Notes under the pieces: model-generated
What the model was told of the DNA's origin: nothing
The model's database searches: none
The model's input: the letters and a program-made list of their open reading frames with translations, nothing else
Translations under genes and position numbers: made by a program
Part shown: in pieces, positions 35,599 through 64,000 of the stretch
Layout: every line of letters begins with the position of its first letter
Numbering within the stretch: position 1 is the stretch's first letter
NCBI GenBank assembly: GCA_034435095.1
Contig: DAOTYC010000060.1
Location: 2,577-66,576 of the forward strand
Direction: 5' to 3'
Length of the DNA: 64,000 nt
From: Anaerolineae bacterium
Lineage (GTDB): Bacteria; Chloroflexota; Anaerolineae; DAOTYC01

Positions 35599-35628
35599 TT
35601 GACAAAGCACCCAGTATATTGTATAATT
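35599..35628 (+). promoter_or_regulatory. near-consensus sigma70 promoter of the Phd-like/MTase operon
   Basis: TTGACA-18 nt-TATAAT. Confidence 0.6.
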
Positions 35629-35649
35629 TGGCTAAATTATACAATATAC
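35614..35649. promoter_or_regulatory. perfect 16-bp inverted repeat (putative operator) overlapping the -10 and TSS
   Basis: GTATATTGTATAATTT-ggct-AAATTATACAATATAC. The arms are exact reverse complements. Confidence 0.55.
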
Positions 35650-35667
35650 GAAGTTGGAGCAGACGGA

Positions 35668-35910
35668 ATGGTTACCAAGACTATCTCTTCCACTACTGCA
35701 CAGAATAACTTTGGCCGCGTTCTTGATGACGTGATTCAAAATGATTCTCGCTATGTCATCAAGCGTCGAGGCTTGCCGCAAGCCATACTGTTGAGTTTGC
35801 CGGATTTTGAAAGATTGTTGGTAGCCAATGCTCACGAACGGTTGGCGGTGGGGCAGCTACTGCGCGAAATCGGGCCAGTGTACCAACTTGGAGAGACTAT
35901 TAAGCAGTAA
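35668..35910 (+). CDS. Phd/YefM-fold antitoxin-like DNA-binding protein (putative controller of the R-M system)
   Basis: 80 aa, MVTKTISSTTAQNNFGRVLDDVIQNDSRYVIKRRGLPQAILLSLPDFERLL, matches the Phd/YefM N-terminal fold. It ends 8 nt before the MTase ATG. No cognate toxin gene is adjacent. Confidence 0.65.
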   Translation: MVTKTISSTTAQNNFGRVLDDVIQNDSRYVIKRRGLPQAILLSLPDFERLLVANAHERLAVGQLLREIGPVYQLGETIKQ

Positions 35911-35918
35911 GTGACAAC

Positions 35919-36863
35919 ATGACAATTGAGCAACTTGAGCGCATTTATACACTTCACTATGAATTTCATCGTTTCACAAATTCGATTGTGATACATGCGG
36001 ATTGTTTTGCGTGGATGAGCGAAATTCCCCCTGACAGCATTCATGCTATCGTCACAGATCCTCCCTACGGAGTGAAAGAATACGATCCAGAACAATTAGA
36101 AAAGCGAGCAAATGGAAATGGGGGAGTTTGGCGCATCCCACCATCCTTTGATGGCCATGTCAGGTCGCCTTTACCACGCTTTACCGCGCTGAATCAAAAG
36201 GAAAGAGAGCGAATTCGAGAGTACTTTTGTGAGTGGGCTCAACTGGCTTTACGAATCTTACGCCCTGGCGCCCATGTTTTCCTGGCATCAAACGTTTTCC
36301 TCTCACAAATAGTCTTTGCCGCGATTGCTGATGCTGGCTTAGAGTTCCGTGGGCAGGTGGTCAGATTGGTCAGAACATTCCGAGGTGGCGATAGGCCAAA
36401 GAACGCGGAGGATGAATTTCGAGACGTTTGCTCAATGCCACGCGGTTGTTATGAACCATGGGGCATCTTTCGAAAACCTATCCCCAAAGAAATGACTCTG
36501 AGCGAATGCCTACGAATCTTCCAAACCGGCGGCTTGCGTCGAAAACCAGATGGCAACCCCTTTGAGGATGTCATCGAAAGTGAACGCACACCACAAAAGG
36601 AGCGAATGATAGCTGACCACCCAAGCCTGAAGCCGCAATCTTTTCTTCGCCAAATCGTGCACGCTTCTTTGCCGTTGGGTGAAGGGATAGTACTTGACCC
36701 TTTTATGGGCTCTGGTTCTACCATTGCGGCGGCTGAAGCGACAGGATATTCTGCTCTTGGTGTTGAGAAGTGCAGAGAATACTACTCGATGAGCTTACAG
36801 GCCATTCCTTCTTTGTCTTCGCTTTATGTCAAAGAGACACAAATGTCTTTTCAGTTAATCTAA
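35919..36863 (+). CDS. beta-class N6-adenine/N4-cytosine DNA methyltransferase
   Basis: Motif IV IVTDPPYG comes before motif I LDPFMGSGSTIAAAE. That order places it in the beta group. Confidence 0.85.
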   Translation: MTIEQLERIYTLHYEFHRFTNSIVIHADCFAWMSEIPPDSIHAIVTDPPYGVKEYDPEQLEKRANGNGGVWRIPPSFDGHVRSPLPRFTALNQKERERIREYFCEWAQLALRILRPGAHVFLASNVFLSQIVFAAIADAGLEFRGQVVRLVRTFRGGDRPKNAEDEFRDVCSMPRGCYEPWGIFRKPIPKEMTLSECLRIFQTGGLRRKPDGNPFEDVIESERTPQKERMIADHPSLKPQSFLRQIVHASLPLGEGIVLDPFMGSGSTIAAAEATGYSALGVEKCREYYSMSLQAIPSLSSLYVKETQMSFQLI

Positions 36864-37547
36864 GTCCTCATACACCCAGTTGGCTTTCATTTTTCTCACG
36901 CCGCTTTGCGTAACACTGGCAGTAATCGTTCGACGACTGGTTTCCGAACGCCCGGAAAAGGCCCAATCACCTTTATCAAGCCTAGCAGCGTAAACGCCCT
37001 TGAAGCGAAACGGCTTAGATTCTACACCTCTTATCTTATCCCGCGATGTATTGCTGTCAAAATAGAATACCATAAGCCAAACAGGTTCTGGGTTATGTCC
37101 TTGCCAGCCACTTGCATGCCTTGAGGCTTTTATCTCGATCCCATCTTGCGCATATTGTACTGTATCATTGGGAAACTTCCCTCTGGGTATCAGGTCAGGA
37201 TGCCCATTGTGATATCGGTTTTTTACCAGGTAGGTGCAATGCTCGGGAATTCTGAGGCCCATAAACTCTCCCACAATGCTGCTAAAATTAGCTGGCATCA
37301 GAAAACTCTCAAGCCTGGGGAATCCTTTTGTGTGGAGTTGCTGGTTTATGAAGCCTAGAAAACTTGTGAGGTCTTCCATGGCTCGACGCACATGTTCGGT
37401 TGTCAAGCCATAAGGAAGACTGACTTCAGGATTAAAGCGGTTCGGGTTCACAGGTACAGGTGTACAAGCCGCGAATTCATCGAGCATTGTAGTTATCTCA
37501 CAGTCTTCTAAAATGTTTAACCATTGTCGAAACTCGGCCTGGCGCAC
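36855..37547 (-). CDS. putative Type II restriction endonuclease (PD-ExK)
   Basis: Convergent with the MTase and overlapping it by 9 nt. It carries GHPDLIP...DGIEIKAS (PD...ExK) and is AT-rich. The real start may be the internal MLDEF (~37487), which avoids overlap with the MFS 3' end. Confidence 0.55.
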   Translation of the reverse strand: MRQAEFRQWLNILEDCEITTMLDEFAACTPVPVNPNRFNPEVSLPYGLTTEHVRRAMEDLTSFLGFINQQLHTKGFPRLESFLMPANFSSIVGEFMGLRIPEHCTYLVKNRYHNGHPDLIPRGKFPNDTVQYAQDGIEIKASRHASGWQGHNPEPVWLMVFYFDSNTSRDKIRGVESKPFRFKGVYAARLDKGDWAFSGRSETSRRTITASVTQSGVRKMKANWVYEDLD

Positions 37548-55046: not shown

Positions 55047-56546
55047 ATGTCAAGAAAAGGGCACATCATCGTCATCGGAGCCGGCCTGGGGGGGCTGGCG
55101 GTAGCTGCCCGTCTGGCACGAGCAGGCTATCGGGTCACCGTCTTCGAAAAGCAAGACCGACCGGGTGGCCGGTCTGGAGTCATACGTCATAATGGCTTTC
55201 ACTTCGACACGGGGCCGACCCTGTATCTGATGCCAGAAGTGTTCGAGCAGACGTTTGCCGAGCTGGGGCGACGTCGTGAAGATTACTACCCCCTGTTCAA
55301 AGTCAACCCGAACTACCGCATTCATTTCCACGACGGCGATTCCATTCTCCTGCAGACCGACATGACGGCCCTTCAGAACGAGATGGAGCGCTTCGAGCCG
55401 GGCGTCTTTCCCCGCTGTTTGAAGTTCCTGGCCGAGGGCAACATGGCTTACAATGTGTCTCTGCAGAAATTCCTGGGACGCAACTTTCACAGCCTGTTTG
55501 AATTCTTCGCCCCTGCCCACCTGCCGCTCATGTTCCAGTTGCGTGTCCTGAAAAAACACTACGCTGAGACTTCGAAATACTTTGAGTCCGATAAGTTGCG
55601 GCGAGCCATGACCTTTCAGACGATGTATCTGGGTTCGTCGCCTTTCGATTCCCTGGCGACTTACACGCTCCTCCAGTATACAGAAATGGTTCGCGGCATC
55701 TACTTTCCGCAGGGCGGGATATACGCTGTCATCGAGGCTTTTGAGCGGATTCTGGCAGAGGAGGGGGCGGAGTTGGTCTGCAACTCGCCAGTGCGGGAGA
55801 TCGTCCTGGACGGGATGACTGCCAAAGGCGTGATTCTGGAGGATGGCACCCGTGTAGACGGAGATGCCGTCGTGGCGAACGCTGACCTGCCGTATGTCTA
55901 TGACCGGCTGCTGCCTCATCCTGAGGCCAGGAAATACGCCGAGGTACTGAAACGGAAGAAATACACTTCTTCTGCGGTCATGTTCTATTGGGGGATCGAC
56001 CGACGTCTGGAAAAAGAGCTGCCCGTGCATCACAATATCTTTCTGGCTGAAGACTACCAGGGTTCCTTCGAGCAGATATTTCGCGAATACCGGGCGCCGG
56101 TGGACCCATCGTTCTATGTCAGCGCACCAACGCGGACCGACCCCTCCTACGCGCCTGAGGGCAAGGAATCTCTGGTCGTACTGGTCCCCGTGGGCCATCT
56201 GGAGGAGGGTGTTGAGACCGACTGGCAACAGCAAACCGCCCAGATCAAAGCGCATGTGTTGCGTCGCCTGGCACAACTGGCAGGTGTGCGAGACCTGGAG
56301 AAGCATATTGAATACGAGGCGGTCTATACTCCTCGATACTACCGCGACGCCCTCAACCTGATGAAAGGTTCGGCCTTTAGCCTGGCGCACAATTTTCTTC
56401 AGGTTGGTTACTTCCGTCCCCACAATAAGGCGGACAAGTTCGCCAATTTATACTTCACGGGTGGGGCCACCCATCCTGGCACGGGATTGCCGATCGTCTT
56501 GATTTCGGCCAAACTGACGGCCGAGAGAGTTGTCACAGGGAGATAA
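55047..56546 (+). CDS. crtI: phytoene desaturase
   Basis: FAD fold HIIVIGAGLGGLAVAARLARAGYRVTVFEKQDRPGGR, ~500 aa, and C-terminal YFTGGATHPGTGLP. Confidence 0.85.
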   Translation: MSRKGHIIVIGAGLGGLAVAARLARAGYRVTVFEKQDRPGGRSGVIRHNGFHFDTGPTLYLMPEVFEQTFAELGRRREDYYPLFKVNPNYRIHFHDGDSILLQTDMTALQNEMERFEPGVFPRCLKFLAEGNMAYNVSLQKFLGRNFHSLFEFFAPAHLPLMFQLRVLKKHYAETSKYFESDKLRRAMTFQTMYLGSSPFDSLATYTLLQYTEMVRGIYFPQGGIYAVIEAFERILAEEGAELVCNSPVREIVLDGMTAKGVILEDGTRVDGDAVVANADLPYVYDRLLPHPEARKYAEVLKRKKYTSSAVMFYWGIDRRLEKELPVHHNIFLAEDYQGSFEQIFREYRAPVDPSFYVSAPTRTDPSYAPEGKESLVVLVPVGHLEEGVETDWQQQTAQIKAHVLRRLAQLAGVRDLEKHIEYEAVYTPRYYRDALNLMKGSAFSLAHNFLQVGYFRPHNKADKFANLYFTGGATHPGTGLPIVLISAKLTAERVVTGR

Positions 56547-56556
56547 AGGAAGTGCT

Positions 56557-57501
56557 ATGGAGCTGAGCTGGGCAAGAGCTTTGGTCAAGCCGGAAGGGGG
56601 CTGCGGGGCCATGGAAAGACGATTGAGGGAGGCATTCGAGTATTGTCGGCAAGTGACCAGGCGCTATTCGAAATCTTTCTATTTCAGCAGCGGGCTTCTG
56701 CCGCCGGAAAAGCGTGAGGCGGTGCGCGTCTTATATGCCTTCGCCCGTCTGAGCGACAACCTGGTTGACGAGGATGGGGGTTTGACCCACCAGGATAGGG
56801 CAGCTCGACTGGAAGCATGGCAAGAGGCAATGTATCTTCCCGTCGAAAAGCAAAGCCACCCGGTACTGATGGCCTGGGCCGAAGTGCGCCAGCGTTACCA
56901 GATACCCGTTCGCTACAGCGAGGAGCTGCTGGAAGGCATGAAGATGGACTTGCGATTGACCCGTTATCAGACCTTCGACGACTTGACGCGATATTGCTAT
57001 TGCGCCGCAGCCACGGTGGGTTTGTGTAGCATGTACATCATCGGCTTTACCGACAGGCCGGAGACTTTTCAACGGGCCGAGGATCTGGGAGTTGCGCTAC
57101 AACTGACGAACATCTTGCGAGACGTGGGCGAGGACTGGCAGAGGGGCCGAATTTACCTGCCGCAAGAAGACATGGCGCGTTTCGGCTACACAGAAGACGA
57201 CCTGAGCCGGTCAGTGATCGATGAGCGATATCGCGCACTGCTCGACTTGCTGATCAAGCGGGCAAACACATTGTACGAGCGGGGTTGGGAAGGCATTGCC
57301 TGGCTCGACAAAGACGGACGGCTCGCCGTGGCCGCCGCCACCGAAGTCTATCGGGCGATCCTGCGCAAAATTGTCGCCTGGGGCTACGACAATTTTCATC
57401 GGCGCGCCTATCTGAACGCCTGGGAAAAAGCGCGCCTTCTGCCATCTGTGTGGTGGCGGGTGCGTTCGCTCGACAGACGTGGTGCGGCCACGCCGTTTTA
57501 G
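56557..57501 (+). CDS. crtB: phytoene synthase
   Basis: SQS/PSY motifs YCYCAAATVGLCSMYI and LTNILRDVGEDWQRGRIYLP. Confidence 0.85.
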   Translation: MELSWARALVKPEGGCGAMERRLREAFEYCRQVTRRYSKSFYFSSGLLPPEKREAVRVLYAFARLSDNLVDEDGGLTHQDRAARLEAWQEAMYLPVEKQSHPVLMAWAEVRQRYQIPVRYSEELLEGMKMDLRLTRYQTFDDLTRYCYCAAATVGLCSMYIIGFTDRPETFQRAEDLGVALQLTNILRDVGEDWQRGRIYLPQEDMARFGYTEDDLSRSVIDERYRALLDLLIKRANTLYERGWEGIAWLDKDGRLAVAAATEVYRAILRKIVAWGYDNFHRRAYLNAWEKARLLPSVWWRVRSLDRRGAATPF

Positions 57502-58013: not shown

Positions 58014-59117
58014 TCACCTCTCCGTCGGCGCCACAATTTCCCAGCCGAAGACAGGGAAGGTAGGCAGTGGCTGAACCGTTGCCGCAGTCGAGCGCGCCGG
58101 CGCGATGGACGTCGGTTTGGGCCGGGTCGCCGCGCGGACGGCCGGCTGAGCGGTTTGGGTCTCACTCGAAGCCGCAGCCGAGGTCAGTTGAACGGCAGTG
58201 AGAGTAACCGCGCCTTGGCGATTGGGGAGAATATAACCAGCCAAAGGGCTGCTCGATACACACAATCCAAATACGCCCAACAGCAATACGACACATAAAG
58301 CCGCGACAGCGACCCACGGCAGGGCCGTCCGTTCGGGTATGACCTCGACCACTTTGATCACCAAAGCAGTCACATTGTCGTTTCCACCGTGTCGGTTGGC
58401 CGCTTGAATCAACTGGGCAGCGGCCTCTTGCGCCGACTGGTGGGTAGTGACAATCTGGAGGATCTCTTCTTCGGGGACTTCATTGGACAAGCCGTCGCTG
58501 CACAGCAGAACAATGTCGCCCGCTTTCAGAGGTGTGCTGAACGTATCAACATCAACTTCAGGCCGACTGCCCATGGAACGGGTAATGATGTTGCGGTAGA
58601 TATGCGCCTGGGCCTCAGCCTCGCTCAACAGACCGGCCTCAACCTGTTCGTTGACCCACGAATGGTCGCGGCTGAGCTGGCGAATCCGGCCGTTGGTGAC
58701 GAGATAGGCCCGGCTATCTCCAACGTTGGCGACCAGCAATTCATCGTCCTGCACGACCGCAGCTACCAGCGTAGTGCCCATTCCGGAATGGGCCGCGTTG
58801 GACGCCGCATGAGCGTAAATTTCCGAATTGGCGGCCCAGAAGGCCTGTTCCAGGCTGCGTCTGAGGTCGATGTCCATGTCTTCATAGTAATGGCGGAACA
58901 AAACGTTGATCGCTTTCCGGCTGGCGACTTCGCCGGCAGCGTGTCCGCCCATGCCATCGGCTACCGCGTACAGACGACCTTTGCGGTTCACCAGGTCCTG
59001 AGAGAGTTGAATTGACTCCAGGTAGTCTTCAAAGACGCCCAGTGAGTCTTCGTTGTGGTCCCTGACCATCCCCACATCCGTCAGCGGCCCTATATCAAGA
59101 CGTAAACGTTGGCCCAT
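58014..59117 (-). CDS. PP2C-family Ser/Thr phosphatase with a C-terminal TM and Pro/Ala-rich extracytoplasmic tail
   Basis: LGVFEDY...YAVADGMGGHAAGEVASRKA and VANVGDSRAYL. Confidence 0.8.
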   Translation of the reverse strand: MGQRLRLDIGPLTDVGMVRDHNEDSLGVFEDYLESIQLSQDLVNRKGRLYAVADGMGGHAAGEVASRKAINVLFRHYYEDMDIDLRRSLEQAFWAANSEIYAHAASNAAHSGMGTTLVAAVVQDDELLVANVGDSRAYLVTNGRIRQLSRDHSWVNEQVEAGLLSEAEAQAHIYRNIITRSMGSRPEVDVDTFSTPLKAGDIVLLCSDGLSNEVPEEEILQIVTTHQSAQEAAAQLIQAANRHGGNDNVTALVIKVVEVIPERTALPWVAVAALCVVLLLGVFGLCVSSSPLAGYILPNRQGAVTLTAVQLTSAAASSETQTAQPAVRAATRPKPTSIAPARSTAATVQPLPTFPVFGWEIVAPTER

Positions 59118-59253: not shown

Positions 59254-59437
59254 GAATCGCCTTTCAGAGAAACCAACTCGATCCAACGTTGCTTCCGAAC
59301 GATGTCGTTCCCCGGCGCCCACGACGGACGCATCTCACCAACGCCGTTTTTGCAATACCGAATTGTCGGGCGTTTTTCCAGGAAGCATTCCTGGGTGATA
59401 AGATTTATTGTGTCCACAGAAAGGAGAGGCAGTCAAA

Positions 59438-61075
59438 ATGAATAGCAAACTGGTTCACGTGTGGAGACTTCTGTTGGTGTTGGTGATAGCATCCCTGGTG
59501 ATAGGCATCGCTCAGGCACCGCTGAGCGCGGCCTCGCCGCCTGCCCAAGAGGGTAAGAAGGTGCTTGTGGTAGCGGCCAATCATCAATACGGCGACACGC
59601 TGGATGTTTTCGCTGCAGCAACCACCATGGAGCCACACAACATGATTTACGAAACGCTGGTTTCCATGGACACGAACTATCAGTTCCAGCCTGGCCTGGC
59701 CGAGAAATGGGAGGTTTCGGAGGATGGTCTCACGTGGACCTTCCATCTCCGTAAAGGCGTTAAATTTCACGACGGCAGCGATTTCAACGCTGAGGTGGTC
59801 AAGTGGTGGCTGGCCGGCGTAGCCACTGGCCCCAATGCGTACATGTTCGAGTCAATGACCGAGGCCAAAGTGGTCGATGAACACACCATCCAGATGATCT
59901 TCCCCGCCCCATTCCCCAACCTGTTGTACAACCTGTCCGTGAGCTTCAGCGGCATCATGAGCAAAGCCGCTTTTGAGAAATATGGGGACGAATATGGCAC
60001 CAAATACGCTGTCGGTACGGGGCCTTTCATGCTCAAGGAGTGGGTGCCGAACGATCACCTGCTGTTGGTCAAAAACCCCGACTACAACTGGGCGCCCGAA
60101 TGGACAGGCCATACTGGCCCGGCCAACGTTGATGAAATCCTATTTCGCATCATCCCCGAAGATGCCACCCGTCTGGCCGAACTGCAGGCTGGCAACGTGC
60201 ACCTGTTGATCAACCCGCCGCCGCCACGCGAGCTGCCCATGTTCCAGGACAACCCTGACTATTTCGTTCAGGCATCGTCTGCGGCGACCATACAATTCAT
60301 TGGCATGGGGGTGAACGAGCCTCTGCTCAAAGATTTGCGCACGCGGAAGGCCATTGGCCATGCCATAGACCGCGATCTGCTCAACAAGACGATCTATCAG
60401 GGCATTGGCAGCCCCACCACCACCTACCTGGCCCAGGAATTGGGCGGGAATAAGGGGGTAGCGGAAGTCGCGCCAAGCTTTGACGTAGCCAAAGCCAAGT
60501 CCCTTCTGGCTGAAGTCGGCTGGGTAGCCGGGCCAGACGGGATCTTAGTGGCAGAGAACGTGGAGGGCGTCGAAAAAGGTACGCGCTTTGAGGTCAGCTA
60601 CTGGACCTATCAAGAAGACGAGTACCGTCGGTTGGCCGAGGCCACGCAAAAAATGCTGGCCGATGTTGGCATTAAGGCGAACGTGCAGTTAATGGACAAC
60701 CCGACTTACGCCGATCGTCTGAAAGGCGGAGGGGTGCAGCTCATCTTGCGCCAATATGAGTGGGACAACAACGACATCCTCGAGTGGTTCCACCATTCCA
60801 AGCTGTTGCCCTACCCCAACTACCTGGGCGTCAACGACCCGAAATATGACGCCATGTTGGACGACGCCAACTACAAGACGCCCACGTTCGAGGAACGAGA
60901 TGCCAAGTACGTCGAGTTGCACAAGTACCTGATTGAAAACTGGTATCCATGGGCGCCGATACGACAAACGGCTGACGTCTTCGTCGGGCGCAACTCGGTC
61001 AAGAACTTTATGGCGATCCCTCTGCGCGGTCTCAGTTCGACTGCTTGCTGGACGGTGATTGACCTGGCGCAGTAG
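59438..61075 (+). CDS. ABC transporter substrate-binding protein, family 5 (peptide/nickel, DppA/OppA-like)
   Basis: Signal peptide MNSKLVHVWRLLLVLVIASLVIGIAQA. The ~550-aa SBP_bac_5 fold includes GTGPFMLKEW. Confidence 0.85.
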   Translation: MNSKLVHVWRLLLVLVIASLVIGIAQAPLSAASPPAQEGKKVLVVAANHQYGDTLDVFAAATTMEPHNMIYETLVSMDTNYQFQPGLAEKWEVSEDGLTWTFHLRKGVKFHDGSDFNAEVVKWWLAGVATGPNAYMFESMTEAKVVDEHTIQMIFPAPFPNLLYNLSVSFSGIMSKAAFEKYGDEYGTKYAVGTGPFMLKEWVPNDHLLLVKNPDYNWAPEWTGHTGPANVDEILFRIIPEDATRLAELQAGNVHLLINPPPPRELPMFQDNPDYFVQASSAATIQFIGMGVNEPLLKDLRTRKAIGHAIDRDLLNKTIYQGIGSPTTTYLAQELGGNKGVAEVAPSFDVAKAKSLLAEVGWVAGPDGILVAENVEGVEKGTRFEVSYWTYQEDEYRRLAEATQKMLADVGIKANVQLMDNPTYADRLKGGGVQLILRQYEWDNNDILEWFHHSKLLPYPNYLGVNDPKYDAMLDDANYKTPTFEERDAKYVELHKYLIENWYPWAPIRQTADVFVGRNSVKNFMAIPLRGLSSTACWTVIDLAQ

Positions 61076-61150
61076 CCCTACACCATTGCAGCGTGGCCTT
61101 CCTTAAGTGCCTGGAGGGCCACGCTGATATTCAGTGAAGAACATCTTTGA

Positions 61151-62071
61151 GTGATGACCGCCTATCTGGTTAAACGTCTCTTACTGGCCATCCCGGTGCT
61201 GTTGGTGACCGCCTTTCTGGTCTTCGCTGCCCTACATCTTTCGCCCGGCGACCCTGTGGAAGTCATCGTGGGCCCCATCGCACCGCCCGAAGTGCGCGAA
61301 ATGGTGCGCCACAAGCTGGGCCTCGACAAACCCTTGCCGGTGCAATTTATCTTGTACATGAGCCATATCGTCCAAGGCGACCTGGGGCAGTCGATTCTCA
61401 ACAAGCGAGAAGTGGCTGCCATGATCGCGGAGAAACTGCCGGTCACCGTTGAATTGGGCCTCACTTCATTCGCCCTCACCTATCTGTTGGGCGTCCCCCT
61501 GGGAACGATTGCCGCGCTGAAGCGCAGTTCGTTTTCGGACTGGTTCACCATGATTATGGCGTTGCTGGGTGTTTCCATGCCGGGGTTTTGGTTGGGGCTG
61601 TTGCTTATCTACGTGTTCTCCGTAAACCTCCGCATTTTTCCGGTGACCGGCCACGGCACATTCTCGCACCTGGTGCTGCCTGCCCTGGCGCTGGGCTTAC
61701 CTTTTGTAGGGCGTGTGGCCCGCGTGACGCGCTCTACAGTGCTGGAGATTATCGGCCAGGATTACATTCGCACCGCTCGTGCCAAAGGGCTACGCGAATC
61801 AATAGTCGTTTTCCGCCATGCTTTGCGCAACGCACTCATTCCTATTATTTCCCTGATGGGACTTGACTTTGGCTACATCCTGGGCGGATCTGTGGTCATC
61901 GAACACGTCTTCGCCCGACCGGGCATCGGCGATATGATTCTGCGCAGCATCTATTCGCGTGATTTCCCGGTGCTGCAGGGCTGCATGTTCGTGCTAACCG
62001 GCGGAATCATTCTGGGCAACATTCTCGCGGACATTGCCTACGTGGTCGTTGACCCACGTATCCGGCATTGA
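61151..62071 (+). CDS. ABC transporter permease (DppB/OppB-like)
   Basis: BPD_transp_1 with the EAA-like loop RTARAKGLRESIVVFRHALRNA. Confidence 0.85.
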   Translation: MMTAYLVKRLLLAIPVLLVTAFLVFAALHLSPGDPVEVIVGPIAPPEVREMVRHKLGLDKPLPVQFILYMSHIVQGDLGQSILNKREVAAMIAEKLPVTVELGLTSFALTYLLGVPLGTIAALKRSSFSDWFTMIMALLGVSMPGFWLGLLLIYVFSVNLRIFPVTGHGTFSHLVLPALALGLPFVGRVARVTRSTVLEIIGQDYIRTARAKGLRESIVVFRHALRNALIPIISLMGLDFGYILGGSVVIEHVFARPGIGDMILRSIYSRDFPVLQGCMFVLTGGIILGNILADIAYVVVDPRIRH

Positions 62072-62100
62072 CCCTCGAGTAATGCTGGGAACGGAACGTT

Positions 62101-63045
62101 ATGGGAGACTGGCAGAACAATAACGCACAACCAGCGGAACTCTCGTGTCCGATGGAAAACTGTCCCGCAGCCACGATAGACTGGCAGGGCGGCATCGCTG
62201 AGTTTTCCAGCAGACGTTCGAACATCTGGCGACAATTGCGCCGCAGCCCGGGCGCGATGATTGGTTTGTGTCTGATCGTGTTGTTGCTCTCGACGGCTCT
62301 CTTCGCCGATGTCATCGCCCCGCAAGGGATCGACGACCAGGATCTGCTCAAAGGGCTTCTGCCGCCGGGCAGCGAATTTTTGCTGGGCACCGACGAATTT
62401 GGGCGCGATATGTTCAGCCGCATTGTATACGGCGCGCGCGTCTCGCTGCAGGTCGCCATCATCGCGACCACGGTCTCGGCGCTGGTGGGCGTCTCGCTGG
62501 GCGTCGTTGCCGGCTATTTTGGCGGCACTCTTGATCACATTATCCAGGGGATGATTGACATCAGTTGGGCGTTCCCGACTGTGCTGATGGCCATCTTTCT
62601 GGTCGCCACGCTGGGTCCAGGCCTGGTCAACGTGATGATCGCGGTCGGCCTGGTGTACTGGGGCGGATACGCGCGCGTCGTGCGCGGGCAGGTGCTCTCG
62701 TTGCGCGAGTGGGATTATGTCACCGCCGCACGGGCAATGGGCGCCAGCGATTGGCGCATCATCGTGCGGCACATCCTGACCAACGTGTTGGCGCCGGTCA
62801 TCGTAATGGCGACCCTGATGATGGGGGATGCCATTTTAATCGAGGCTACGCTCAGTTTTTTGGGCATGGGCGCCCAGCCCCCCACCCCCAGTTGGGGCTC
62901 CATTCTGGCTGGCGGACGCACCTATCTGCGCCTGGCCCCCTGGGTCAGCTTGATCCCTGGCCTGGCCATCATGTTGACGGTACTGGGCTTCAATCTGCTC
63001 GGCGATGGCTTGCGTGACGCTCTCGACCCGCGGCTGAGAACGTGA
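62101..63045 (+). CDS. ABC transporter permease (DppC/OppC-like)
   Basis: VTAARAMGASDWRIIVRHILTNV, an EAA-type motif. Confidence 0.85.
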   Translation: MGDWQNNNAQPAELSCPMENCPAATIDWQGGIAEFSSRRSNIWRQLRRSPGAMIGLCLIVLLLSTALFADVIAPQGIDDQDLLKGLLPPGSEFLLGTDEFGRDMFSRIVYGARVSLQVAIIATTVSALVGVSLGVVAGYFGGTLDHIIQGMIDISWAFPTVLMAIFLVATLGPGLVNVMIAVGLVYWGGYARVVRGQVLSLREWDYVTAARAMGASDWRIIVRHILTNVLAPVIVMATLMMGDAILIEATLSFLGMGAQPPTPSWGSILAGGRTYLRLAPWVSLIPGLAIMLTVLGFNLLGDGLRDALDPRLRT

Positions 63046-63108
63046 TGGACGGGTAACGCAAACGATGATATAATTTACCTCACTTGCTAATAGACGCAGG
63101 AGGACAAC

Positions 63109-64000
63109 ATGCTAAAGCGAATCAGAATCCGGGGCTACAAGTCTCTGGCAGACCTGGAAGTGACGCTCACGCCGTTGTCTGTCCTTTTTGGCCCTAATGC
63201 GTCTGGCAAAAGCAACTTCTTAGACGCGCTGCAATTGCTCTCCAGGATAGTCACTAATCGAACCCTCAAAGAAGCCTTCGATCCCCCCTATCGTGGCACT
63301 CCGCTGGAGTCCTTCACGTTTGGGCCGGATGGCATCAAGGGTCTGCTTGCCAAGGAAAGTGCGTCTTTTATCATGGAGGCAGATGTAGAGCTTTCTCCTT
63401 GGGTAATCGAGACGGTAAACCTTCAAATTCAAGAGATGAAGCAGGGTAGAGGCAACGACGATTCTGGTAATTCTGGGACAAAGAGCCCTTCCCTGGTGCG
63501 TGAGAAGAACTTGCGTTATCGGATCGAGGTCGAAATCTTGCCTCAGTCAGGTATATTGCGTGTCGCTGACGAATATCTGGCACCTATCACGCCAAACGGA
63601 CAAATCAAAACCAGTCGCAGGCCCTTTTTAGAAGTCGTGAACGACAAACTACACTTGCGTATGGAGGGGCAAGCCCATCCACGCTATCACGACCTTTATC
63701 TTGACCATAGTTTGCTCTCTCTTCCACTATATCCTCCTCACTACCCTCACCTGGTCGCTATGAGACAGGAACTATCGAATTGGTTCTTTTTCTATTTTGA
63801 GCCCAGGGAACGGATGCGCGCGCCCAATCCCGTGCGAGAGGTTCGTCACATTGGGTTAATGGGAGAAAACCTGGCGGCATTTCTCAACACGTTGCGCGCT
63901 TTGGATGAACCTCAGTTCAGAGCGGTGGAAAAGTCGCTTCGTCTATTGATTCCATCCATTACCCGTCTTGAGGTAGGAGTAAACGACTTAGGGGAAGTCG
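63109..64000 (+). CDS. AAA_21/OLD-like (ABC-type) ATPase, N-terminal ~297 aa only. The gene runs off the window.
   Basis: The hand translation stays open to the edge: MLKRIRIRGYKSLADLEVTLTPLSVLFGPNASGKSNFLDALQLL (Walker A GPNASGKS). This N-terminal architecture is typical of SMC/RecF-like ATPases in phage-defence systems. The region has lower GC, a TATAAT -10 and a GGAGG RBS. Confidence 0.6.
   Translation, partial: MLKRIRIRGYKSLADLEVTLTPLSVLFGPNASGKSNFLDALQLLSRIVTNRTLKEAFDPPYRGTPLESFTFGPDGIKGLLAKESASFIMEADVELSPWVIETVNLQIQEMKQGRGNDDSGNSGTKSPSLVREKNLRYRIEVEILPQSGILRVADEYLAPITPNGQIKTSRRPFLEVVNDKLHLRMEGQAHPRYHDLYLDHSLLSLPLYPPHYPHLVAMRQELSNWFFFYFEPRERMRAPNPVREVRHIGLMGENLAAFLNTLRALDEPQFRAVEKSLRLLIPSITRLEVGVNDLGEV

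Follow-up and report, generated by a model that had tools for sequence, protein, structure and literature searches.

A probable HEC-01-type ATPase–Toprim gene pair, inserted alone between an ABC importer and an amidohydrolase gene in an Anaerolineae bacterium

What does the open reading frame (ORF) that runs off the 3′ edge of a contig fragment encode, and does it belong to an anti-phage system? The question is raised by a 64,000-nucleotide (nt) stretch of an Anaerolineae bacterium of the Chloroflexota (contig DAOTYC010000060.1; the whole stretch is called the window here), in which the gene for an OppC-like permease of an ATP-binding cassette (ABC) importer is followed by a frame that opens at position 63109 and stays open to the window end over 297 codons. 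The initial annotation had read this frame as a partial OLD-like ATPase of the AAA_21 kind and as the possible edge of a defence island. We consider it probable that the window tail is the 5′ two-thirds of the ATPase gene of a horizontally acquired, two-gene cassette of the HEC-01 type, located alone between oppC and an amidohydrolase gene, and that the pair would function as an ATPase-controlled Toprim nuclease that stops phages. HEC-01 (Hma-embedded candidate 01) combines an ABC ATPase with a Toprim protein that has a conserved metal site (Payne et al., bioRxiv 10.1101/2024.01.29.577857). The parts of this reading differ in firmness: that a HEC-01-type ATPase–Toprim cassette has been inserted alone is very probable, and the case for a role in defence against phage or foreign DNA through nuclease activation, which is argued by analogy, is evenly balanced.

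The ATPase gene and its overlapping partner

The translation of the frame starts MLKRIRIRGYKSLADLEVTLTPLSVLFGPNASGKSNFLDALQ = MLKRIRIRGYKSLADLEVTLTPLSVLFGPNASGKSNF, in agreement with the initial annotation, and a protein search retrieved its full-length counterpart, P0001, which is 436 amino acids (aa) long, 100% identical over all 297 window residues (E 7.5e-194) and present on five contigs (ENA, JGI, Logan, NCBI). The cassette downstream of position 64000 was read from four contigs of the source population, L001 to L004, which end 365–530 nt past the ATPase stop; relative to the window, L003 is identical over 3.9 kb and L004 over 1.7 kb, and L001 and L002 carry 5 and 2 differences, respectively. 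The expectation of the initial annotation that the gene and any partner would extend past the window is borne out by these contigs, which hold the remainder of the 436-aa protein and the 5′ part of an overlapping DUF4276 gene. Because the identical full-length protein occurs in other assemblies, homologues number in the thousands and the ratio of non-synonymous to synonymous substitution rates (dN/dS) is 0.05 relative to a sister strain (L089), the window ORF is a real gene. In this gene the window lineage is separated from L089 by 40 synonymous and 7 non-synonymous changes, and the resulting ratio is similar to that of oppC (0.06); between these two lineages the ATPase is under strong purifying selection. 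Two 70-aa minus-strand ORFs are nested within the ATPase gene.

Even by itself, the window fragment matches the Pfam families AAA_21 (39 bits) and AAA_15 (37 bits) above their cut-offs. When the AAA_21, AAA_15 and OLD profiles proposed at the outset were run on the full-length protein, they returned 118.6 bits, 72 bits and, for the Old model, only 60 bits. The Pfam matches, together with those in PADLOC, confirm a partial ABC ATPase of the AAA_21/AAA_15 group that is used by OLD-like anti-phage modules. The best PADLOC match of the full-length ATPase is the HEC-01A model PDLC04184 (195.4 bits, E 4.4e-58), and further HEC-01A models match it at E values from 1e-46 down to ~1e-36; the window fragment alone reaches 6.6e-30 (the per-model thresholds of PADLOC were not applied to the HEC-01A and HEC-01B matches given in this study). 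In the resulting ranking, HEC-01A stands ahead of PDC-M07A, AriA, AbiLi, mad3, Old and GajA.

The motifs of the ABC core are likewise in place. Walker A, GPNA(S/A)GKS, lies within the window, and the ABC signature SEGT (residues 314–317), the Walker B motif FEEPE (338–342) and the H-loop TTHSP (371–375) lie 3′ of the window in the same gene; an alignment of 20 sequences shows all four to be present and invariant, and by this reading the ABC ATPase is complete. Walker A and the signature are ~280 residues apart, and the insert between them carries the invariant stretches PPYRGxPLESF, PLYPPHYPH and FFYFEPRERMR. The AlphaFold model of the protein is of low confidence (mean predicted local distance difference test score, pLDDT, of 63, from a shallow alignment of 20 sequences that are ~70% identical), and its Foldseek neighbours are the ABC heads of PtuA, Rad50, SMC, OLD and GajA, at template-modelling (TM) scores of ~0.4. 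The sole sequence match in the PDB at E <1e-5 pairs the N-terminal 44 residues with the N-terminus of the OLD protein of Thermus scotoductus (6p74). With low confidence, then, the model suggests an SMC/Rad50/PtuA/OLD-like ABC head.

The second gene and the ATPase gene overlap by 8 nt, the start of the former preceding the stop codon of the latter (ATGCCTGA), an arrangement that indicates translational coupling. Its product, of ~195 aa, begins in the source population with MPEIGLFAEDFAHKAF...VVAIDANCHG...AIPDPHIERWLLLD. The 152-aa source fragment of this protein matches the PADLOC HEC-01B model PDLC04210 at 7e-7, with orthologues reaching up to 8e-9, and the sole Pfam match of the partner and its orthologues is DUF4276, a family that has been assigned to the Toprim superfamily and equated with Mad4 (PMC12065111). 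We took as the criterion for this superfamily an alpha/beta fold of three layers in which strand 1 is followed by a conserved Glu and strand 3 by DxD. Invariant residues of the partner lie at the places of Toprim catalytic residues, with E9/D10 after strand 1, D72-x-N74 after strand 3, and D102, H104, E106 and D112 after strand 4. A model of the partner superposes on the Toprim-containing OLD structures 6p74 and 6nk8, and also on many generic three-layer folds at similar Z. The alignment and the model suggest a Toprim-like protein with conserved acidic residues.

Insertion site and surroundings

The sister strain and a set of more distant relatives provide an occupied site and empty sites for comparison. 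In L089, whose ATPase is 98% identical at the amino acid level and 96.6% at the nucleotide level, the order is the end of oppC, the ATPase gene, the DUF4276 gene and a 532-aa Amidohydro_3 gene. The relatives L090 to L094 have the same run of a substrate-binding protein (SBP) gene and two permease genes, with OppC identities of 95% (L090/L091), 91% (L092/L093) and 89% (L094), and in all of them the amidohydrolase gene directly follows oppC after a gap of 24–32 nt, with no cassette; the genes that come next, as read in L090, are of the cellulase-like, PMT_2, methyltransferase, LysM and GT2 kinds. Between L089 and L090, amidohydrolase identity is 89%. At the left junction (window, L089, L090, L093 and L094 compared), similarity to L094 continues through the stop codon and TGGAC and ends at ~63051, and at the right junction, defined in L089, host sequence restarts at CCCTGGAGG, where the amidohydrolase gene has its ribosome-binding site. 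Measured between these junctions, the insert is two genes and a short leader only, ~1.9 kb in length.

Synonymous divergence (dS) is 0.14 between the window lineage and L089 and 0.55–0.76 between the flanking genes and those of the empty-site lineage L090, which dates the insertion to the interval between two splits, the earlier from the L090 lineage and the later from L089. Given the empty sites in relatives and the occupied site with the same amidohydrolase in L089, the cassette is, on comparison of these loci, a recent, solitary and horizontally acquired insertion.

The composition of the region was noted earlier as AT-richer after position 63045, and the measurements agree. The GC content over 63046–64000 is 0.502, as compared to a window mean of 0.574 (standard deviation 0.031 in 955-nt windows), and equally low windows make up 2.5%. 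At third codon positions (GC3), the whole ATPase gene has a GC content of 0.56 and the DUF4276 partner gene 0.50, whereas five neighbouring genes range over 0.68–0.77 and the amidohydrolase gene that natively lies downstream has 0.73; GC and GC3 are thus both down across the cassette, and the region looks foreign. The TATAAT and GGAGG signals that the initial annotation had pointed out are both present at the head of the insert (Table 1), and the horizontally acquired pair would accordingly bring its own candidate expression signals. The promoter candidate has 10/12 consensus matches and is the sole such site in 62800–63300, against 0.3 expected in shuffles, which alone is weak evidence. A search of Rfam gave no family matches in 62500–64000.

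No integrase, terminal inverted repeats or target-site duplication was found at the cassette. An imperfect 14-nt direct repeat (12/14) flanks it, with one copy at the oppC stop (L089:96-109, CGTAATGGACGGGT) and the other 18 nt into the amidohydrolase gene (L089:1936-1949, CGTAATGGAACGGT); the repeat is probably due to chance, although it could hint at microhomology-mediated insertion.

The peptide-type ABC importer at 59408–63045 (SBP_bac_5 and two permeases) has no adjacent genes for ATP-binding subunits, either in the window or in the empty-site relatives, and its arrangement with the amidohydrolase gene suggests an uptake-plus-hydrolysis operon that is now split by the cassette. With no OppD/F gene visible in that interval, an ATPase gene directly 3′ of oppC might be taken for the missing ATP-binding subunit of the importer. 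This is hardly credible: the ~280 residues from Walker A to the signature are unlike transporter ATPases, and relatives with the same importer do without this gene and without OppD/F there as well. A transporter ATPase of the OppD/OppF type was also rejected on the Pfam matches, which are to AAA_21, AAA_15 and SMC_N and not to ABC_tran.

Upstream of the importer lies a carotenoid cluster composed of a CrtI-like desaturase (55047–56546), a phytoene synthase (56530–57501), a lycopene cyclase and a MerR/B12-binding regulator, and a PP2C phosphatase is encoded on the minus strand at 58014–59117. A second low-GC patch (35599–37547, GC ~0.47), situated 27 kb from the cassette, contains three ORFs (Table 1) and could be a small restriction-modification or toxin-antitoxin islet.

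Table 1. Coordinates of features at the 3′ edge of the window and in the second low-GC patch
Feature	Position	Strand	Basis and remarks
OppC-like ABC permease gene; left native flank, outside the cassette	62101..63045	+	Pfam OppC_N and BPD_transp_1; stop TGA at 63043-63045
Left insertion junction	63046..63051	.	likeness to empty-site L094 (TAA, then TGGAC) stops; inserted DNA from ~63051-63052
Sigma-70-like promoter candidate	63046..63074	+	TGGACG (63046-63051), 17-nt spacer, TATAAT (63069-63074), TG before the -10; consensus match only
Shine-Dalgarno-like AGGAGG, 5 nt 5′ of the ATG at 63109	63098..63103	+	read from sequence
HEC-01A-type ABC ATPase (AAA_21/AAA_15), codons 1-297 of 436	63109..64000	+	translation; gene end at window-equivalent 64419
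Walker A/P-loop GPNASGKS, residues 28-35	63190..63213	+	invariant in 20-sequence alignment
Phd/YefM-type antitoxin-like ORF	35599-35910		PF02604, 42 bits
N6_N4 DNA methylase	35919-36863		PF01555, 68 bits
Convergent 230-aa ORF	36855-37547	minus	no Pfam match

Partner loss, pairing and distribution

In the source population the contigs end or branch inside the DUF4276 gene, in its 3′ half. With offsets numbered from the ATPase ATG, L002 ends at 1676 and L003 at 1688. The sister strain L089 departs at 1676, with an internal deletion (~residues 126–178) and a frameshift in its DUF4276 gene (L089:1467-1925), which retains the last ~15 codons (...FLKELCAQFNQW) next to an intact ATPase gene. L001 departs at 1733, in partner codon 143, into 107 nt of GC-rich sequence (L001:11733-11839, window-equivalent ~64841-64947); these last 107 nt have no match in the window or any compared locus and may reflect rearranged DNA, a different insertion or chimeric assembly. 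L004, with a sequence identical to that of the window, keeps the family consensus (KGFLAQAVVDAGV) to residue 152, its limit, and on the basis of this contig the partner copy of the window genome itself is probably intact.

Among related loci the two genes are mostly found together. In a survey ascertained via the ATPase, both genes are intact at 64 of 79 assessable loci, mostly with a start/stop overlap of 4–8 nt. At 11 loci the ATPase is intact and the partner missing, truncated or interrupted, with DUF4276 remnants at several of them, and at the remaining 4 both genes are damaged or absent; remnants adjacent to intact ATPases, similar to that of L089, are seen at L021, L044 and L087. Where loci were ascertained via the partner, the ATPase gene is directly upstream in 3/3. 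The partners are 40–60% identical among themselves where the ATPases are 55–73% identical. Such pairing is that of genes inherited together.

An intact ATPase beside a deleted and frameshifted nuclease gene in L089, the 11 loci with a degraded or missing partner and the finding that no partner-ascertained locus lacks the ATPase are also what might be expected if the cassette were a remnant in decay or mainly a selfish module of the addiction (toxin-antitoxin-like) type, with a toxic Toprim protein restrained by the ATPase, such that the pair would persist and spread with no net protection of the host. Two published results point the same way, namely that mad5 of the MADS system is deletable only with mad2 or mad3 also deleted (bioRxiv 10.1101/2023.03.30.534895), and that one test of HEC-01 was negative (bioRxiv 10.1101/2024.01.29.577857). 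We nevertheless judge this explanation unlikely. Ascertainment via the ATPase biases the asymmetry, the partner-ascertained loci are only three, and both the dN/dS of 0.05 and the conservation across phyla fit a selected function; moreover, one HEC-01 representative did protect its host (PMC12881386), and addiction and abortive-infection defence are not mutually exclusive.

A scan of genome contigs found relatives of the ATPase in at least 569 species genomes. The best 80, which were retained, are 55–73% identical to the query and come from Chloroflexota, Acidobacteriota, Poribacteria, Latescibacterota, Planctomycetota, Proteobacteria, Spirochaetes, Verrucomicrobia and other phyla. Identity does not track taxonomy, as homologues at 72–74% identity occur in a Chloroflexi metagenome-assembled genome, in Gloeobacter violaceus and in a deltaproteobacterium. 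In a 50%-clustered library, 282 representatives are recovered at E 1e-30 versus 17,111 at E 1e-3, and in these searches the clade forms a compact sub-family of the wider AAA_21 group.

The breadth of this conservation, in combination with ordinary neighbours, might point to a housekeeping DNA-repair ATPase of the RecF/SMC/RecN type; two homologues are in fact named 'DNA recombination protein RecF' and 'recombination protein F' by their sources, and the N-terminal 45 residues match the SMC_N and recF models. The initial annotation had named a housekeeping match with ordinary neighbours as the outcome that would overturn it. The ordinary neighbours were found and the match was not: RecF and SMC were rejected at 35.2 bits versus 172 for recF, 19 versus 567 for SMC_prok_B and 36.7 versus 40 for SMC_N, the matches lying within the first ~45–55 residues. 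Furthermore, the gene is absent at the same locus in close relatives and has a foreign GC3, the distribution over phyla is patchy with identity off taxonomy, and pairing with a Toprim-like gene is obligate. A housekeeping role of this kind is extremely unlikely.

For a survey of the neighbours, the two nearest ORFs to the left and to the right of 32 related cassettes were taken, which gave 128 flanking proteins. Any one PADLOC family matches at most two of these; HmaA and HmaB each match 2/128, with 2/32 cassettes in Hma systems, and the Pfam domains of the flanking proteins belong to metabolic and transport families. A homologous cassette is borne by plasmid CP017449 of Acidihalobacter aeolianus (L104:5372-14260), which was not returned by the PLSDB search described below. 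It lies between a GmrSD_N fragment, a 1003-aa N6_N4 methylase, a DUF4258/MqsA toxin-antitoxin pair and a 1050-aa ResIII helicase, in a locus that adjoins P4-like primase and AlpA genes, and this looks like an Hma-embedded, mobile-element context, unlike the source locus. At L018 and L044 the cassette adjoins a putative DUF1156-type methylase, recognised by eye.

Such embedded copies, the pairs of HmaA and HmaB matches and the fact that the source sequence is read only to ~950 nt past the window end are the grounds on which the ORF could still mark the edge of a larger defence island past the window. We regard this as very unlikely, and the island proposed by the initial annotation finds no counterpart at the site: between oppC and the amidohydrolase gene the empty sites leave room for the two-gene cassette only, the junctions enclose just these genes, L089 reads through them into the amidohydrolase gene, L090 to L094 continue from oppC and the amidohydrolase gene into the genes listed above, and elsewhere most of the 128 neighbours in the 32 genomes have no PADLOC match and carry metabolic or transport domains.

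Relation to known systems and a proposed mechanism

The present cassette resembles HEC-01 in that an ABC ATPase gene is followed by a gene for a small Toprim-like protein, the best hidden Markov model matches of the two are HEC-01A and HEC-01B, and the ABC core has long inserts. It differs from HEC-01 in being solitary and outside an Hma system, in its weak HEC-01B match, and in belonging to a clade whose conservation across phyla is much higher than usual for defence genes. Embedding in an Hma system, absent at the source site between oppC and the amidohydrolase gene, was the route of discovery of HEC-01 and is not a requirement for membership. By the matches of both genes and their adjacency, the cassette belongs to the HEC-01 candidate family of PADLOC at the level of sequence profiles. 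It is a known, catalogued module type, and as a further HEC-01 copy it brings a small direct gain.

In mode of action the cassette can be likened to the two-gene OLD-like systems PARIS, AbiL and Mad3/Mad4. Mad3 and Mad4 of the MADS system (Pseudomonas aeruginosa SMC4386) also unite an AAA_21-type ATPase with a DUF4276 protein, each of the two being required for MADS defence (bioRxiv 10.1101/2023.03.30.534895), and the PADLOC mad3 model scores 77 bits on the present ATPase. However, MADS is an eight-gene system, and no other mad genes (methylase, mad6-8) are found near the present cassette; although MAD3 is the best NCBIfam match of the ATPase, membership was rejected at 142.7 bits against the NF047739 equivalog cut-off of 420. 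In PARIS, an ATPase scaffold senses a phage protein and releases a Toprim nuclease, which cleaves tRNA (PMC11464382). AriA and AriB are, like the genes described here, a separate ATPase and Toprim effector encoded side by side, and the AriA model gives 112 bits on the present ATPase, but AriB is a DUF4435 protein of ~35 kDa rather than a DUF4276 protein of ~195 aa. PARIS is typically located on phage satellites and prophages, whereas the present clade has no close relatives in the copies of IMG/VR, INPHARED and PLSDB that were searched. Assignment to PARIS was rejected on the Pfam matches of the partner and its orthologues, which are to DUF4276 only.

OLD, GajA and PtuA had been named in the initial annotation, correctly as relatives of the ATPase and incorrectly as its family, in that HEC-01A matches best and a separate DUF4276 protein supplies the nuclease. 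OLD and GajA share the combination of an ABC ATPase head and a Toprim nuclease, and the classes 1 and 2 of OLD (P2 Old, GajA) have both fused in a chain of ~580 aa, as opposed to the two genes found here. They were rejected because the 436-aa ATPase ends without a Toprim domain, which is on a separate gene. Scores are 60 bits for the Old model and 59 bits for GajA (56–60), mainly from an N-terminal P-loop stretch of ~45 residues, and there is no GajB/UvrD-like helicase gene in L089 or at the empty sites. The PtuA chains 9n69 and 8eea, of the Septu and retron PtuA-PtuB systems, are the top structural neighbours, at a TM score of ~0.4 with the low-confidence model; PtuA was rejected at 36 bits versus an NCBIfam cut-off of 500, and the partner is not an HNH nuclease.

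By analogy with other ABC ATPases and with OLD-like systems (PARIS, PMC11464382; OLD and HEC-01, bioRxiv 10.1101/2024.01.29.577857), we propose that the ATPase would form ATP-sandwich dimers or larger assemblies through ATP-dependent dimerisation of its heads and would sense an infection-associated cue via its large conserved insert. The assembly may then release or activate the Mg2+-dependent Toprim nuclease partner, which would cut nucleic acid, either DNA or tRNA, such that phage replication stops and the infection is arrested.

A number of observations weigh against this proposal and the reading from which it starts. With respect to the partner, HEC-01B models score the proteins weakly (26–34 bits); relative to a DUF4276 cut-off of 30.2, the 152-aa source fragment has 24 bits, the Chloroflexota orthologue 29.7 and the Gloeobacter orthologue 33.3; the canonical Toprim DxD is DxN in the partners of this clade; and the polymorphic or deleted 3′ half of the gene in the source population means that the copy in the window genome may be non-intact. 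With respect to the clade, 60–74% aa identity over >10 phyla is unusual for a defence gene, and its members mostly lie among ordinary genes. The virus and plasmid collections yielded no close relatives, with matches of ~30% over 70 residues only in IMG/VR and none at E <=1e-20 in PLSDB or at E <=1e-10 in INPHARED. As for function, the HEC-01 representative tested by Payne et al. failed to protect against any phage (bioRxiv 10.1101/2024.01.29.577857), and functional support is confined to other members of the type. One cold-seep HEC-01 representative protected E. coli B versus at least one of T4, T5 and T7 (PMC12881386); neither tested representative is known to belong to the clade described here.

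Some of the same observations would be accommodated if the ligand of the ATPase were a highly conserved one, cellular or nucleic acid, or if the ATPase had a function of its own, for example to monitor a conserved host complex that would signal infection when disturbed. This possibility, which we hold to be distinctly unlikely, is suggested by the 60–74% identity across >10 phyla, the invariant motifs of the insert and the dN/dS of ~0.05, and by the chromosomal location, usually outside islands and mobile elements, of a gene that often outlives its nuclease partner. If true, the clade would not be an ordinary arms-race defence gene, and no fast-evolving phage protein would be recognised.

For the HEC-01-type cassette that we favour, loss of the nuclease gene within a single population in which the ATPase is under purifying selection hints at which component is costly. 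The pair of empty and occupied sites indicates that a promoter-bearing, two-gene ATPase–Toprim cassette can land alone in a metabolic operon without an integrase, repeats or an island. With two published tests disagreeing over the defence status of HEC-01, this very conserved and widely transferred sub-clade, present in at least 569 species genomes, would be a good target for settling it.

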